A stretch of DNA of 17,767 bases from a virus (Duplodnaviria; Heunggongvirae; Uroviricota; Caudoviricetes): positions 1 through 17,767 of the IMG/VR virus record IMGVR_UViG_2690316149_000014; one strand, given 5' to 3'. This document shows positions 1 through 12,735 of the stretch, in pieces; the stretch's first letter is position 1, and every line of letters begins with the position of its first letter. The notes below the pieces were generated by a model. It did not search any database. It was given only the letters and a program-made list of their open reading frames with translations, and was not told where the DNA came from. Both the position numbers and the translations under genes were made by a program.

Positions 1-1248
1 ATGGCACTGAATATTCCATTCAGAAATGCGTACTATCGTTTTGCATCCAGTTACTCATTTCTCTTTTTTATTTCCTGGTCGCTGTGGTGGTCGTTATACG
101 CTATTTGGCTGAAAGGACATCTAGGGTTGACAGGGACGGAATTAGGTACACTTTATTCGGTCAACCAGTTTACCAGCATTCTATTTATGATGTTCTACGG
201 CATCGTTCAGGATAAACTCGGTCTGAAGAAACCGCTCATCTGGTGTATGAGTTTCATCCTGGTCTTGACCGGACCGTTTATGATTTACGTTTATGAACCG
301 TTACTGCAAAGCAATTTTTCTGTAGGTCTAATTCTGGGGGCGCTATTTTTTGGCTTGGGGTATCTGGCGGGATGCGGTTTGCTTGATAGCTTCACCGAAA
401 AAATGGCGCGAAATTTTCATTTCGAATATGGAACAGCGCGCGCCTGGGGATCTTTTGGCTATGCTATTGGCGCGTTCTTTGCCGGCATATTTTTTAGTAT
501 CAGTCCCCATATCAACTTCTGGTTGGTCTCGCTATTTGGCGCTGTATTTATGATGATCAACATGCGTTTTAAAGATAAGGATCACCAGTGCGTAGCGGCA
601 GATGCGGGAGGGGTAAAAAAAGAGGATTTTATCGCAGTTTTCAAGGATCGAAACTTCTGGGTTTTCGTCATATTTATTGTGGGGACGTGGTCTTTCTATA
701 ACATTTTTGATCAACAACTTTTTCCTGTCTTTTATGCAGGTTTATTCGAATCACACGATGTAGGAACGCGCCTGTATGGTTATCTCAACTCATTCCAGGT
801 GGTACTCGAAGCGCTGTGCATGGCGATTATTCCTTTCTTTGTGAATCGGGTAGGGCCAAAAAATGCATTACTTATCGGAGTTGTGATTATGGCGTTGCGT
901 ATCCTTTCCTGCGCGCTGTTCGTTAACCCCTGGATTATTTCATTAGTGAAGTTGTTACATGCCATTGAGGTTCCACTTTGTGTCATATCCGTCTTCAAAT
1001 ACAGCGTGGCAAACTTTGATAAGCGCCTGTCGTCGACGGTCTTTCTGATTGGTTTTCAAATTGCCAGTTCGCTTGGGATTGTGCTGCTTTCAACGCCGAC
1101 TGGGATACTCTTTGACCACGCAGGCTACCAGACAGTTTTCTTCGCAATTTCGGGTATTGTCTGCCTGATGTTGCTATTTGGCATTTTCTTCTTGAGTAAA
1201 AAACGCGAGCAAATAGTTATGGAAACGCCTGTACCTTCAGCAATATAG
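1..1248 (+). CDS. cscB: Sucrose:H+ symporter, LacY / oligosaccharide:H+ symporter family (CscB-like), 415 aa
   Basis: Full ORF from ATG at base 1 to TAG 1246-1248; polytopic hydrophobic profile typical of 12-TM MFS permeases; recalled similarity to LacY/CscB. Gene symbol rests on recalled identity, not a search. Confidence 0.8.
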   Translation: MALNIPFRNAYYRFASSYSFLFFISWSLWWSLYAIWLKGHLGLTGTELGTLYSVNQFTSILFMMFYGIVQDKLGLKKPLIWCMSFILVLTGPFMIYVYEPLLQSNFSVGLILGALFFGLGYLAGCGLLDSFTEKMARNFHFEYGTARAWGSFGYAIGAFFAGIFFSISPHINFWLVSLFGAVFMMINMRFKDKDHQCVAADAGGVKKEDFIAVFKDRNFWVFVIFIVGTWSFYNIFDQQLFPVFYAGLFESHDVGTRLYGYLNSFQVVLEALCMAIIPFFVNRVGPKNALLIGVVIMALRILSCALFVNPWIISLVKLLHAIEVPLCVISVFKYSVANFDKRLSSTVFLIGFQIASSLGIVLLSTPTGILFDHAGYQTVFFAISGIVCLMLLFGIFFLSKKREQIVMETPVPSAI

Positions 1249-1256
1249 ACGTAAAC

Positions 1257-1301
1257 TTTTTCCGGTTGTTGTCGATAGCTCTATATCCCTCAACCGGAAA
1301 A
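1257..1301. repeat. Perfect 11-bp inverted repeat (TTTTCCGGTTG ... CAACCGGAAAA) with ~23-nt spacer, 9 nt after the cscB stop
   Basis: Seen directly. No T-run follows the stem on either strand, so it is not a canonical intrinsic terminator. Confidence 0.6.
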
Positions 1302-1689
1302 TAATAATAGTAAAATGCTTAGCCCTGCTAATAATCGCCTAATCCAAACGCCTCATTCATGTTCTGGTACAGTCGCTCAAATGTACTTCAGATGCGCGGT
1401 TCGCTGATTTCCAGGACATTGTCGTCATTCAGTGACCTGTCCCGTGTATCACGGTCCTGCGAATTCATCAAGGAATGCATTGCGGAGTGAAGTATCGAGT
1501 CACGCCATATTTCGCTATCAGGATTCTGTGTGATGGTTACATCGCCCGGCTCAGGGCTGTTTAGTCATCAGCGCTTTCTGACAGTGCTGAGATTTCAACC
1601 TGTTGCAGTAAAAATGAGTAGATATAAGGCAAGTGTGCTGCCAAACCCATCTTTTACGGGGTGAAGGTAGATTTCGTTTGAAGGGTATC

Positions 1690-1704
1690 TGGTGTCCCCT
1701 GCAG
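1690..1704 (-). other. Attachment-site core (attR-like): 15-nt copy of the 3' end of tRNA-Arg argW (CTGCAGGGGACACCA on minus strand); chromosome/prophage boundary
   Basis: Plus strand reads TGGTGTCCCCTGCAG, the reverse complement of the recalled argW 3' end. Chromosomal gene (cscB) on the left, phage genes on the right. No intact tRNA is present. Confidence 0.6.
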
Positions 1705-1777
1705 ACATCTACTTGACGAGGCAGGGGATTGATTGGAATGGTGTTTTTTAGATATGAGAAATATTTTACCCGCTATT

Positions 1778-1978
1778 TTACCCATTGGCGCGGCTTAAGA
1801 GCTTATTTTTGAATTCACAATGGTCACGATATAACCATCTTGCTCGCCCGTGGATAACTTTGGCTTTAGGCAGGTCCCCGGACTTAATCCGGTCATAGAT
1901 GAAGGTTTTACCGAAGCCAGTATCGGCCATGATGAATTTCAAATCAACCAGTGAATCAGGCTGTAGTTCGTGTTGCAT
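1778..1978 (-). CDS. torI: Excisionase / recombination directionality factor, AlpA-TorI family, 66 aa
   Basis: 66-aa ORF 73 bp inside the att core; size and basic winged-helix-like sequence (…FGKTFIYDRIKSGDLPKAKVIHGRARW…) match recalled TorI of KplE1. GGAG about 10 nt upstream of the ATG. Confidence 0.7.
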   Translation of the reverse strand: MQHELQPDSLVDLKFIMADTGFGKTFIYDRIKSGDLPKAKVIHGRARWLYRDHCEFKNKLLSRANG

Positions 1979-7205: not shown

Positions 7206-7913
7206 TTATGCCGCCTGTTTTAGTTCGTTAACTCTGATGTTCATTACCTGAACGCATTTAGCCTGCGCATCCTCATTGCCAGCCATTAATTGCCAGTCAT
7301 GCTGATAACGTTCTATGAGTTTTTTCTTGTCAGTTTCTGTTGATGCATAATCGCTGAAGTCTTTCAGGATTTGTTCGCAGTCAACCGATGGAGATTTCTG
7401 GTTGGTATTTTCTGGTGATGGTTTGTTATCTGATGCTGGGATTGCCCATCCCGGCAGCGATGGAGGGAGCCAGTAAAATCCTGTTCCATCTTTCAGTTTT
7501 GCCCTGTGCCATCCCTGCTTTTTATCGAGAGATGTTTGTGCGAAACCTTCCTCAAGGTTATACAGATACCGACCGATTCCCCATTGAACGGCAGCACGCT
7601 TCATTGCACCGGAACGACCACCTTTGACGGCTTCTACCTGCGTGTTTTCAGCAGCATCCCATTTGGTTACCCATTCGGAATCAATCTTGATTGATATGCC
7701 GCATTCAACTCCGCCGTTGTTGGGAATATCGCGGTATTCATTGCGCCATCCTGCTTTGCCGCAAACATCGTCCAGGCGTTTCATGATTGCCCTGTTCGTG
7801 ACATAAGCCAGCACCATAGCCCACACCTTTCCATCGCGTGTTTTACCGCTTTGCTGTATTCGCCATTCGATATCTTCAGGGCTGAATGGCTCATCGAATT
7901 TATTCAAATCCAT
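7206..7913 (-). CDS. Single-strand annealing protein, Rad52/22-like family, 235 aa
   Basis: Motif …GGRSGAMKRAAVQWGIGRYLY… recalled as typical of phage Rad52/22-type recombinases; RBS GAGGTGA; stop abuts the ssb ATG (TAAATG). Confidence 0.65.
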   Translation of the reverse strand: MDLNKFDEPFSPEDIEWRIQQSGKTRDGKVWAMVLAYVTNRAIMKRLDDVCGKAGWRNEYRDIPNNGGVECGISIKIDSEWVTKWDAAENTQVEAVKGGRSGAMKRAAVQWGIGRYLYNLEEGFAQTSLDKKQGWHRAKLKDGTGFYWLPPSLPGWAIPASDNKPSPENTNQKSPSVDCEQILKDFSDYASTETDKKKLIERYQHDWQLMAGNEDAQAKCVQVMNIRVNELKQAA

Positions 7914-8000
7914 AATTCACCTCAGAATGGACATGGCCCAAGGAAATAACGCTGATTTAATACTTCAGTCTTTGCCGCATTTAAAAATACGCGAACACCT

Positions 8001-8171
8001 TCACGATCTCCCTTCTGGCGATACATTAACGCCTGCTGCGTGTACATGCGTCTCTGTAACTTGCTCTCCTTCACTGTGGTTGCAAGTGACATGAATATCT
8101 CCTTCGTTACCGATTAATTCTTTCATCTGACGAATGAATTCTTCGTCTGACCAGTTATCTGTAAAACTCAT
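8001..8171 (-). CDS. Hypothetical small acidic protein, 56 aa
   Basis: Track ORF trimmed to the ATG at 8171, which overlaps the kil-like stop as ATGA. No family recognised. Confidence 0.4.
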   Translation of the reverse strand: MSFTDNWSDEEFIRQMKELIGNEGDIHVTCNHSEGEQVTETHVHAAGVNVSPEGRS

Positions 8172-8320
8172 TTCCTGCGATACCACGGAAGGTTGATAGC
8201 TGATTTCATCGCTTTATTTGCTTCAAGCCACATTTTCGAATCACCAATAAATCTGGCTATTACTGCTTTGTTCTGTGCAGCACGAAGCATCTGGTGATTG
8301 ATGGCTATTTCATTGCGCAT
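8168..8320 (-). CDS. kil: Kil-like small protein, 50 aa (MRNEIAINHQMLRAAQNKAVIARFIGDSKMWLEANKAMKSAINLPWYRRK)
   Basis: Below the track cutoff. Immediately downstream of and overlapping cIII, as kil is in lambda; FIGDxKM motif recalled from Kil proteins. Recollection only. Confidence 0.45.
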   Translation of the reverse strand: MRNEIAINHQMLRAAQNKAVIARFIGDSKMWLEANKAMKSAINLPWYRRK

Positions 8321-8436
8321 AATAAGACCTCAACTCTTTTCCATCCGTCACGTAATTTACGGGTGATTCGTTCAAGTAAAGATTCATTTAGTTGGAAGGC
8401 ACCCATGCGAGCGCCTCCCGCGATTGCGTAAATCAT
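8305..8436 (-). CDS. cIII: CIII-like protein (FtsH/HflB inhibitor), 43 aa (MIYAIAGGARMGAFQLNESLLERITRKLRDGWKRVEVLLCAMK)
   Basis: Below the track cutoff. RBS AAGGA; the core …ESLLERITRKLRDGWKR… matches the recalled central amphipathic helix of lambda CIII. Confidence 0.7.
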   Translation of the reverse strand: MIYAIAGGARMGAFQLNESLLERITRKLRDGWKRVEVLLCAMK

Positions 8437-8460
8437 GGGTGGTTCCTTATGTTGGTTTTA

Positions 8461-9429
8461 TTAGTAGGTTATTTTTGTTGCGAATACTTCGCCTTTTACG
8501 ATGGCTGTTATGATATTTTTAGCAACATCTTCTGATGCGCCAACCTTGATAAGGTCAGCAAGTATTTTGTTATTTACTTCTTTCCGGTGAGCTTTATCCT
8601 TTGCTCTACGCTCTTCTTCGTCCTTGATTCTTTTTTCTTCTGCTATTCTGGCTTGCTCTTTTGCTTCAGCCTCGCGACGGGTTCGTTCAGCCTCCTCCTG
8701 TGCTTTTCTGCGTTCTGCTTCAATTGCTGCCTGCTTTTCTCTTTCAGCTCGTTCTGCTGCCTCTTTTGCTTCGCGCTGTGCTCGTTGCTCGGCTTCAATG
8801 CGTTCACGCTCTGCACGTTCCGCTGCGGCCTTAGCTTCTGCTTCTCGCCTTGCTGCTGCTTCAATTTCGGCTTTTGCCTTTGCTTCGGCTTCTGCTCTGG
8901 CTTTCTCTTCAGCTTCTCTTTTTAATCGTTCTTCATGCTCTCGCTTTTCCTGCTCCGCTTTGAGTCTTGCCTCTTCTCTTTGGCGGTCAAATTCGCGATC
9001 CATCAAAATCGCTATTTCATGGTCAGACTCAATTTGCTTTGCGAGAGCTTCAGCTGCTGCCTTAGCTTCTTCTTCGGCTTTAATCCGCGCCTGTTCTTCC
9101 TCATAATCAGTAAGAGGCTGGCGCGCCTTGGCTTTCAGTTCATCAAGGCGATCACGCACTGTCTTGCGGTTGGCATCAATTAGCTTTGGAATTTCCTTAA
9201 GTTCAGCAACAAGGTCTTTGCCAATACCATCGAGATATGTTTTCGTCTGCGCAACTTTATACGCCAGAGAAGCGATCTCCTTTCTGCCCTTTGCCGTTGT
9301 GATATCAGGCACAAAGGACATAACTTCACGTTCAACCTTTTGAAGGATTTCTTCAATCTGGTCGGCAGACTGAAATACAGTCATTGCATTTGCTTTTTCA
9401 ATAACAACTAAATCTGTTACTTCACTCAT
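8461..9429 (-). CDS. Hypothetical phage protein, 322 aa, with long Glu/Ala/Lys/Arg-rich low-complexity coiled-coil centre
   Basis: Strong RBS GGAGGA; central ~150 aa are EAKR repeats, with matching GC-rich DNA repeats at 8600-9000. Confidence 0.65.
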   Translation of the reverse strand: MSEVTDLVVIEKANAMTVFQSADQIEEILQKVEREVMSFVPDITTAKGRKEIASLAYKVAQTKTYLDGIGKDLVAELKEIPKLIDANRKTVRDRLDELKAKARQPLTDYEEEQARIKAEEEAKAAAEALAKQIESDHEIAILMDREFDRQREEARLKAEQEKREHEERLKREAEEKARAEAEAKAKAEIEAAARREAEAKAAAERAERERIEAEQRAQREAKEAAERAEREKQAAIEAERRKAQEEAERTRREAEAKEQARIAEEKRIKDEEERRAKDKAHRKEVNNKILADLIKVGASEDVAKNIITAIVKGEVFATKITY

Positions 9430-9441
9430 ATATCCTCCATC

Positions 9442-9468
9442 AAAAAAATTGCCCTCACATTAGAGGGC
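9442..9468 (-). terminator. Intrinsic terminator in the leftward early operon (tL1-like): GCCCTC-loop-GAGGGC stem plus U-run
   Basis: Minus strand reads GCCCTCTAATGTGAGGGCAATTTTTTT. Lies between the 156-aa gene and the RBS of the 322-aa gene. Confidence 0.6.
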
Positions 9469-9530
9469 AAAGAAGATTTCCAATAATCAGAACAAGTCGG
9501 CTCCTGTTTAGTTACGAGCGACATTGCTCC

Positions 9531-10051: not shown

Positions 10052-10351
10052 TCAAATAAGTGGTTTGCTGCCTAATTTCATTTTCTGGCGACCAACACAA
10101 GTCACACCCATTTCACTGCGTGGCTTGCGGTAGTAAATACGATTCTGTTTACTCTCTACTTCTTCTGCCTTCTTGCAGCGAAGGCTTCCGAGTGATGCTG
10201 CTTTATCTGCTCTGACGCAACCAGAGAGCTTTAGCGCAATTTTTCGCGCCAGTCGCTGCTCTTGCATTGCCTGTTCACGTTGAGCCTGTCTGCGTGCTCT
10301 GCGGCGATTTCTGGCGTTATCGTCAGCCAGATATGTAATGACTACTGTCAT
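10052..10351 (-). CDS. N: N-family transcription antiterminator, 99 aa, with arginine-rich motif
   Basis: Track ORF 10052..10423 trimmed to the ATG at 10351 (RBS GGAGG). N-terminal ARM …NARNRRRARRQAQREQ…; first gene downstream of pL/nutL; matching boxA/boxB sites on both sides of the immunity region. Confidence 0.65.
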   Translation of the reverse strand: MTVVITYLADDNARNRRRARRQAQREQAMQEQRLARKIALKLSGCVRADKAASLGSLRCKKAEEVESKQNRIYYRKPRSEMGVTCVGRQKMKLGSKPLI

Positions 10352-10391
10352 GTTGACCTCCGGGAAGGTACACATCCTTGTGTGTCGATGA

Positions 10392-10511
10392 TTATTTGTT
10401 TTTGCGTTCCCACATCCAGTCATCTACTTCAGACCAGATAGTGAAACCGAAGCAGATGGCGAATGTGGTAACTAAACCACCGAGAATTGGGTTGGTCATG
10501 ATGTCTAACAT
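10392..10511 (-). CDS. Possible small hydrophobic peptide, 39 aa, in the pL leader between nutL and N
   Basis: Below the track cutoff. RBS GAGGAA 6 nt before the ATG; one predicted TM helix. Could be a chance ORF. Confidence 0.25.
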   Translation of the reverse strand: MLDIMTNPILGGLVTTFAICFGFTIWSEVDDWMWERKNK

Positions 10512-10681: not shown

Positions 10682-10724
10682 TTCCCGCATTTCGGCGGGA
10701 CAATCCCATCAATGTTAAAGAGCC
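10682..10724 (-). promoter_or_regulatory. nutL-like site: boxA (GGCTCTTTAACA) plus boxB hairpin (UCCCGC-CGAAAU-GCGGGA) in minus-strand transcript sense
   Basis: The boxB RNA is identical to the one at 12381-12398 on the opposite strand; boxA matches the CGCTCTTTA-type consensus. Confidence 0.6.
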
Positions 10725-10770
10725 TGCCAATCTTTTCCGTTTGGCTTCCAGCGTCCTGCTGATGGCTAAA

Positions 10771-10855
10771 GAATACTGTAGGTATTTTATTGTGTAAATA
10801 CCCAAGGTATTTATTTTTGATGAAATAATGATAAACAAATGAATACAAAGGATAT
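10771..10855. promoter_or_regulatory. OL operator cluster / pL region: three sites of form GAATAC-N5-GTATT
   Basis: Sites at ~10771-10786, 10797-10811 and a weaker one at ~10841-10855 share half sites with the OR operators. Confidence 0.55.
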
Positions 10856-12456: not shown

Positions 12457-12735
12457 ATGCAACTTACAAGTACTCGCAAGAAAGCGAATGCAATTACAAG
12501 CAACATCCTGAATCGAATTGCTGTACGTGGTCAGCGAAAGGTTGCCGACGCGTTAGGGATTAATGAATCGCAAATTTCGCGATGGAAAGACAGCTTCATC
12601 CCAAAAATGGGAATGCTTCTGGCTGTTCTTGAATGGGGTGTTGAAGACGAGGAGTTGGCGGAACTGGCTAAGAAAGTAGCCAGAATGCTGACAAAAGAAA
12701 AAGCCCCGAAGAACGGCGAATTCTTCGAGGCCTGA
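12457..12735 (+). CDS. cII: CII transcriptional activator, 92 aa
   Basis: Recalled similarity to lambda CII (…SQISRWK…IPK..MLLAVLEWGV…); position right after cro/nutR. Confidence 0.85.
   Translation: MQLTSTRKKANAITSNILNRIAVRGQRKVADALGINESQISRWKDSFIPKMGMLLAVLEWGVEDEELAELAKKVARMLTKEKAPKNGEFFEA

Follow-up and report, generated by a model that had tools for sequence, protein, structure and literature searches.

Two overlapping micro-ORFs in a P22/Sf6-like lambdoid prophage match cIII and kil

Introduction

Which genes occupy the short minus-strand interval between a 322-aa gene and the recombination module in the 17,767-nt window analyzed here (the whole stretch of viral DNA)? The first-pass annotation had assigned two small ORFs in this interval to cIII and a kil-like gene. 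In lambda, CIII is an oligomeric amphipathic-helix peptide that competes for FtsH and is itself degraded by this protease, thereby protecting CII (PMC1838920), and Kil disrupts FtsZ rings in a ZipA-dependent manner (PMC3961180). We examined the identity, conservation and context of the two ORFs together with the predicted structure of the cIII leader RNA.

Results

Two overlapping micro-ORFs have their own start signals

Two overlapping minus-strand micro-ORFs of 43 and 50 aa with good ribosome-binding sites were found exactly as first described:

8305..8436, minus strand: cIII coding sequence, 43 aa, MIYAIAGGARMGAFQLNESLLERITRKLRDGWKRVEVLLCAMK; lambda/P22 CIII class with a short HK022/HK97-type C-terminal tail (..LCAMK)
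8168..8320, minus strand: kil coding sequence, 50 aa, MRNEIAINHQMLRAAQNKAVIARFIGDSKMWLEANKAMKSAINLPWYRRK; HK97/Sf6 subtype of the lambda Kil family
8444..8448, minus strand: Shine-Dalgarno sequence AAGGA, 7 nt upstream of the cIII ATG, read directly from the sequence
8328..8331, minus strand: Shine-Dalgarno sequence GAGG, 7 nt upstream of the kil ATG and within the final cIII codons, read from the sequence

The two coding sequences overlap by 16 nt (8305..8320), and kil translation probably relies on its own GAGG site within the 3´ end of cIII. An AAGGA(G/A) motif also is found upstream of lambda cIII and P22 cIII. Alternative starts at M11 in either ORF are disfavored, given that the upstream ATGs have Shine-Dalgarno sequences at ideal spacing, that residues 1-10 are conserved in homologues, and that the long forms are used in all annotated records. 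The pair does lie between the 322-aa gene and the recombination module, but the gap also holds two further micro-ORFs, described below. The idea that both genes are invisible to the ORF track needs narrowing: an ORF listing at a 50-aa threshold leaves out cIII but includes kil, and the invisibility thus is an effect of the minimum-length cut-off only.

The 43-aa ORF is a CIII protein that retains the residues required in lambda

The 43-aa ORF contains the motif ESLLERITRKLRDGWKR, which had been taken for the core helix of lambda CIII. This 17-residue core is indeed identical in the lambda protein and is encoded by identical DNA, and an N-terminal AIAG motif is common to the two proteins as well. 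In a BLASTP comparison with lambda CIII, taken from lambda 31000..36000, 24/35 residues are identical (E=1e-13), and similarity to P22 C3 is higher still (28/39 identical, 72%, E=9e-19). The ORF belongs to the Pfam family PF02061 (Lambda_CIII), scoring 56 bits against a gathering cut-off of 25.7 (E=4e-15, residues 2-36), and matches phrog_550 among the PHROG profiles (E=1.6e-20). Translation of the fetched Sf6 locus gave a gp32 that is 100% identical to the window CIII; a tblastn search found the same protein, again 100% identical, in mEp043 and added HF4s. In many RefSeq phage records, CIII goes under the name "CIII anti-termination", which misnames an FtsH inhibitor.

Residues 14-37 of lambda CIII (24 residues) are essential and sufficient for activity, and the substitutions S17A, R24A, L26A, R27A and R32A each give a cIII- phenotype (PMC1838920). 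The corresponding region of the window protein, residues 16-39 (LNESLLERITRKLRDGWKRVEVLL versus PSESLLERITRKLRDGWKRLIDIL in lambda), is identical at 18/24 positions and lies wholly inside the ORF. All five loss-of-function positions are identical in the BLASTP alignment to lambda (window S19, R26, L28, R29 and R34). The final five residues of the essential region differ, LIDIL in lambda versus VEVLL in the window, though they are still mostly hydrophobic, and the peptide stops four residues further on. The helical hydrophobic moment of the window CIII at 100 degrees, a computed property rather than a structure, is 0.55, compared with a shuffle mean of 0.25 (1.8% of shuffles reach 0.55) and with values of 0.67 for lambda, 0.60 for P22 and 0.53 for HK022.

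The window CIII differs from lambda CIII at its C-terminus. The lambda protein has 54 aa, and after R34 the window sequence reads VEVLLCAMK where lambda has LIDILNQPGVPKNGSNTYGYPD. The CIII proteins of HK022 and HK97 have the ..LCAMK tail in common with the window CIII but an otherwise different core (HESELSRRVKQLIRAAKKQLEA), are only 43% identical to it, and form a separate, recognized "HK022 class" (PMC1838920). At the DNA level, cIII is a three-part mosaic: the 5´ end and leader, including the leader hairpin discussed below, are most like P22 c3, the core is identical to lambda, and the tail is of the HK97 type, the DNA from about 8322 onward being identical to HK97. The central part is:

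8337..8385, minus strand: lambda-identical cIII core, 49 nt identical to lambda cIII DNA, encoding ESLLERITRKLRDGWK

Since the LCAMK tail sits in the overlap with the HK97-type kil start, the mosaic junction resembles ordinary lambdoid module exchange. The Sf6-type CIII is, in sequence, a hybrid with a lambda core and an HK022 tail.

The 50-aa ORF is a Kil protein of the HK97/Sf6 subtype

The second ORF had been assigned to kil on the basis of its position and a FIGDxKM motif. The ORF reads FIGDSKM where lambda Kil has FIGDEKM, it overlaps cIII as kil does in lambda, and 17/30 residues are identical to lambda Kil in BLASTP (E=3e-9); significant similarity thus was found for both lambda proteins, in agreement with the first-pass annotation. 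The ORF is a member of Pfam family PF06301 (Lambda_Kil), with 72.6 bits against a cut-off of 27.6 (E=1.7e-20) over residues 9-39 and the full 31-position profile, and matches phrog_2055 (E=1.2e-35) and, more weakly, PHROGs 3924 and 2461, which likewise are Kil families. The translated Sf6 gp31 and HK97 Kil loci are 100% identical to the window Kil, as are the Kil proteins of HK022 and H-19B, and tblastn added HK106 and others.

With lambda Kil, the window protein has in common the AxQxK..IA.FIGDxKM..EA core, the gene position, and a predicted fold. A single-sequence AlphaFold2 model has a helix at residues 2-25, a turn at G26-D27 and a helix at residues 28-42, with a mean pLDDT of 86.3 (93-96 over residues 11-40). 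For lambda Kil, a helix at residues 4-18, a G19-D20 turn and a helix at residues 21-38 have been predicted, all of which are needed for activity (PMC11762379); the window Kil thus is predicted to have the same helix, G-D turn, helix arrangement. A Foldseek search with this model against BFVD gave no match at E<=0.001, the fold being too simple to inform; the top match was the Kil of Serratia phage Eta (E=0.045), followed by generic helical hairpins.

The two proteins differ at both ends. Lambda Kil has 47 aa, whereas the window Kil has an N-terminus that is seven residues longer and a C-terminus, INLPWYRRK, that lacks RSK/RSSK; in the core, only the 17/30 residues mentioned are identical, and the lambda type falls into PHROG 3924 rather than 2055. 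An RSK/RSSK C-terminal motif has been reported in nearly all lambda Kil homologues and tied to full activity (PMC11762379). The motif is not part of the Pfam definition, and the WYRRK end of the window Kil is basic. Relatives have similar alternative tails (WHRK in phage Dewey, WYRKS in the Enterobacter phage), and it is possible that contacts with FtsZ and ZipA differ between lambda Kil and the YRRK-tailed HK97/Sf6-type Kil.

We noted several further cases around kil. The 62-aa P22 Kil was considered as a homologue and rejected because its sequence is unrelated to the window Kil or lambda Kil; name and position are common, ancestry is not. The RefSeq record of HK629 (NC_019711) has an 80-aa "Kil" CDS (308..547 of the fetched segment) that covers the cIII region, with no cIII annotated. 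In Erwinia phage Midgardsormr38, a 38-aa ORF, MKSRYFSKAQELCREAVMYSNADKWAAAMNILRRAFQP (1335..1451 of the fetched segment), lies right after cIII in the kil position and is annotated as hypothetical; it shows a faint Kil-like pattern (AQ....A......KW.AA) and is possibly a distant relative of Kil.

Both frames are conserved and already annotated

Codon alignments were made for cIII with P22, lambda and Erwinia phage Midgardsormr38, and for kil with phages Dewey, Enterobacter vB_Ecl_MII_001, Serratia Eta, Proteus Pm34 and lambda. Synonymous differences approach saturation (pS 0.44-0.89), while nonsynonymous differences are far lower (pN 0.16-0.39). The dN/dS ratios that could be calculated are 0.12-0.32, with 0.12-0.26 for cIII against its homologues in P22, lambda and the Erwinia phage. 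Purifying selection acts on both frames.

The locus is widespread. In 318 phage records, DNA identity to 7900..8800 is 95% or more, and the pair is present in 482/5426 complete RefSeq E. coli genomes (coverage of at least 80%). Among these phage records, a CIII protein and a Kil protein are annotated in mEp043, mEp213, mEp234, HK544, HK633, CUS-3, Sf101 and Sf6; both names are used for HK97 as well, and PGAP uses the names "protease FtsH-inhibitory lysogeny factor CIII" and "host cell division inhibitory peptide Kil". An NCBIfam scan of the four micro-ORFs matched no models, and the PGAP names presumably come from other types of evidence. In the literature found, experimental tests concern lambda CIII, lambda Kil and HK629 Kil' only, and none concern the Sf6-type CIII or the HK97-type Kil.

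The pair lies in a leftward lambdoid early operon

The leftward operon is ordered putative pL, putative nutL, N-like gene, 156-aa gene, terminator-like hairpin, 322-aa gene, cIII, kil, two micro-ORFs, annealing protein, SSB and 3´-5´ exonuclease, with a cI-like repressor, Cro, CII, O and a DnaB-like P to its right. The elements that define this context are:

10770..10798, minus strand: putative pL, TTTACA-17-TATTCT, with inverted-repeat operator-like sites on its flanks, from a consensus scan
10683..10723, minus strand: putative nutL, a boxA-like GCTCTTTAACA followed by a boxB-like hairpin TCCCGCCGAAATGCGGGA
10052..10423, minus strand: N-like antiterminator gene, phrog_271 (E=1.3e-37), at the head of the operon bearing cIII and kil
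7206..7913, minus strand: Rad52-type annealing protein, downstream of the two micro-ORFs and followed by SSB and 3´-5´ exonuclease
12457..12735, plus strand: cII, Pfam Phage_CII (143.9 bits against a cut-off of 21.3), encoding the FtsH substrate for which protection by CIII is expected

Given the Phage_CII match, the CII partner of CIII is present. The putative nutL was assigned by comparison with the lambdoid nut consensus. Only 24 nt separate the 322-aa gene from cIII, with no terminator in between.

Several observations were made on the upstream part of the operon. The N-like ORF matches the PHROG N profile from residue 13 only and has no Pfam match; the listed start is simply the first ATG that follows a stop, and the true one is uncertain. 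Between the putative nutL and the N-like gene, and overlapping the listed N start, there is a hydrophobic 39-aa micro-ORF (10392..10511, minus strand, MLDIMTNPILGGLVTTFAICFGFTIWSEVDDWMWERKNK) that has a GAGGA ribosome-binding site; it matches phrog_7482 (unknown function, E=8e-25) and has the appearance of a gene for a small membrane peptide in the first part of the pL operon. Immediately upstream of the 322-aa gene, a strong intrinsic-terminator-like hairpin (9449..9470, minus strand; TTGCCCTC..GAGGGCAA followed by T7) probably is a tL-type terminator that is read through by N antitermination; no family match was found for a 32-aa ORF (9426..9524) that spans this hairpin. The 322-aa gene (8461..9429, minus strand) is a homologue of Sf6 gene 33 with a highly charged, E/A/K/R-rich coiled-coil center and no Pfam family, and is labeled "TolA" in some records.

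The cIII/kil gene order matches that of lambda, P22, Sf6 and HK97. As in lambda, cIII lies just upstream of kil in the pL operon and overlaps it, though by 16 nt rather than the 32 nt found in lambda, and kil is followed by an Arf-like gene where lambda has gam. P22 has the same c3-kil-arf-recombinase order. In Sf6, gene 33, cIII, kil, gene 30, gene 29, the Rad52-type annealing protein and SSB follow in the same order with the same 16-nt overlap, and the DNA is ~96% identical over 7900..8800; there is essentially no difference at the locus, while the flanking mosaic segments of the prophage differ.

Two micro-ORFs occupy the space between kil and the annealing-protein gene:

8001..8171, minus strand: equivalent of Sf6 gene 30, 56 aa; phrog_2123 (E=4e-40); in 75 phage records
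7922..8092, minus strand: equivalent of Sf6 gene 29, like HK97 gp42, 56 aa; phrog_1723 (E=4.5e-34); in 69 phage records

The start codon of the first and the stop codon of kil overlap in the sequence ATGA, and the N-terminus of this first ORF is Arf-like (MSFTDNWSDEEFI versus MQHEFSDEEFI in P22 Arf). The second, which overlaps the first by 92 nt in a different frame, has a homologue in Salmonella phage S9-5 (70% identity), where the upstream ORF is missing. The gp42.1 of the HK97 record results from two additional single bases (one after CATGT, one after ACACGC) that join the N-terminus of one ORF to the C-terminus of the other. This could be a genuine fusion or an error of early sequencing; it could also hint at frameshifting in Sf6-type phages.

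At the left end of the window (1..1978), there is a complete gene for a LacY/CscB-type MFS sugar transporter (Pfam LacY_symp, 643 bits); an excisionase/TorI-like 66-aa gene comes next, and no integrase separates the two. This host-prophage junction is found in 77 complete E. coli genomes (coverage of at least 80%), and one phage record, vB_EcoP-683R2, likewise carries a "sucrose permease".

The missing integrase is one of the observations that would fit a different reading, in which the ORFs are homologous but functionally decayed cIII/kil relics in a cryptic prophage: CIII would be inactive because it is 11 residues shorter than lambda CIII and has an altered helix end, and Kil would be weakened because the RSK motif is missing. 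We consider this reading highly improbable. The tail of the window CIII does diverge from residue 35 on, but ..LCAMK is the natural tail of HK022/HK97 CIII, and the essential region finishes within the ORF, at residue 39. Lambda Kil does lose activity, about tenfold, when its C-terminal region is removed (PMC11762379), and the window protein ends in YRRK instead, yet the same proteins are found in viable temperate phages (Sf6, mEp043, HK97, HK022 and others), and the frames have stayed open, under purifying selection, across genera. The micro-genes are intact, as had been suggested: neither is truncated, and each is 100% identical to its Sf6 counterpart (gp32 for CIII, gp31 for Kil), with the CIII essential region and its five critical residues kept.

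The cIII leader is predicted to adopt two competing folds outside the lambda thermometer family

The lambda cIII leader belongs to the Rfam family RF01804 (Lambda_thermo), whereas the window leader does not. An Rfam scan of the whole window at the gathering score gave no RF01804 match, and a scan of 8250..8550 at E<=10 likewise gave no Lambda_thermo match, with only chance snoRNA-type matches at E>3. The model itself is sound, since the lambda leader used as a control scores 88.5 bits against a cut-off of 50. Lambda-style thermoregulation therefore cannot be assumed for this leader. Folding nevertheless predicts a defined structure:

8394..8419, minus strand: predicted 11-bp RNA hairpin in cIII codons 6-15 (+18..+43), present in the MFE and centroid structures, z=-2.7

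The 3´ arm of this hairpin, CAUGGGUGCCUUCC, is predicted to be able to pair instead with the Shine-Dalgarno/AUG region (GGAA...CACCCAUG), which makes the hairpin a possible translational switch. In the alternative predicted fold, GGAA and CACCCAUG (Shine-Dalgarno sequence and AUG) pair with CAUGGGUG..UUCC, and this occluding form, at -22.2 kcal/mol, is predicted to compete with open forms at -22.0 and -22.9 kcal/mol. An equivalent hairpin is predicted in P22 and epsilon34 despite sequence changes, although there are few distinct leader types and coding constraint confounds covariation. Alternative mRNA structures have been reported for lambda cIII (Altuvia et al., 1989, as cited in PMC6524683). 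On the hypothesis suggested by these folding predictions, the two competing folds of the window leader may resemble the lambda structures in principle, a likeness of function and not of family membership. We regard it as a doubtful, though conceivable, proposition that the P22/Sf6-type cIII leader is its own kind of translational switch outside Rfam, and with it the second and smaller proposal that the YRRK-tailed Kil has altered contacts with FtsZ/ZipA. If true, the leader switch would work like the RNA thermometer and RNase III-responsive switch of lambda, with another architecture.

That the main importance of the stretch lies at the RNA or regulatory level, for instance in a translational switch or a processing site, with one of the frames incidental, can be dismissed as exceedingly improbable: the stable hairpin in the cIII codons with its isoenergetic Shine-Dalgarno-occluding alternative and the curated RNA thermometer in the lambda cIII leader speak for such a role, but both frames match curated protein families strongly and have an excess of synonymous change, no Rfam family matches here, and an RNA element would supplement the coding function, as in lambda, and not substitute for it.

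Discussion

We are highly confident that the two ORFs represent cIII and kil of a P22/Sf6-like lambdoid prophage within an E. coli chromosome, located in the prophage's leftward, pL-driven and N-antitermination-controlled early operon. By homology to the lambda proteins, we infer that CIII would inhibit FtsH and that Kil would cause FtsZ/ZipA-dependent filamentation. If the order of events is as in lambda, infection or induction would lead to transcription from pL that continues past N and the 322-aa gene into cIII and kil. The 43-aa CIII would act as an amphipathic-helix peptide that is both a competitive inhibitor and a substrate of the membrane protease FtsH, and inhibition of FtsH would stabilize CII and tip the decision to lysogeny. 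The 50-aa Kil, a predicted helix-turn-helix hairpin, would disrupt FtsZ-ring assembly and cause transient filamentation during lytic growth, an effect that is ZipA-dependent in lambda. Translation of cIII may in addition be modulated by the two rival folds that its mRNA is predicted to form near the start codon.

The genes are already known. Since they are identical to the Sf6 pair and routinely annotated in hundreds of E. coli genomes, the original observation is correct but ordinary, and its significance goes little beyond correct annotation: the prophage keeps a standard lysogeny-promoting FtsH inhibitor and a division inhibitor. The locus also illustrates that short-ORF cut-offs conceal real phage genes, given that at least five micro-genes of 39-56 aa are found in this leftward operon. 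Mildly useful leads are the hybrid Sf6-type CIII, the widespread HK97-type Kil without RSK, and a cIII leader outside the curated RNA-thermometer family.
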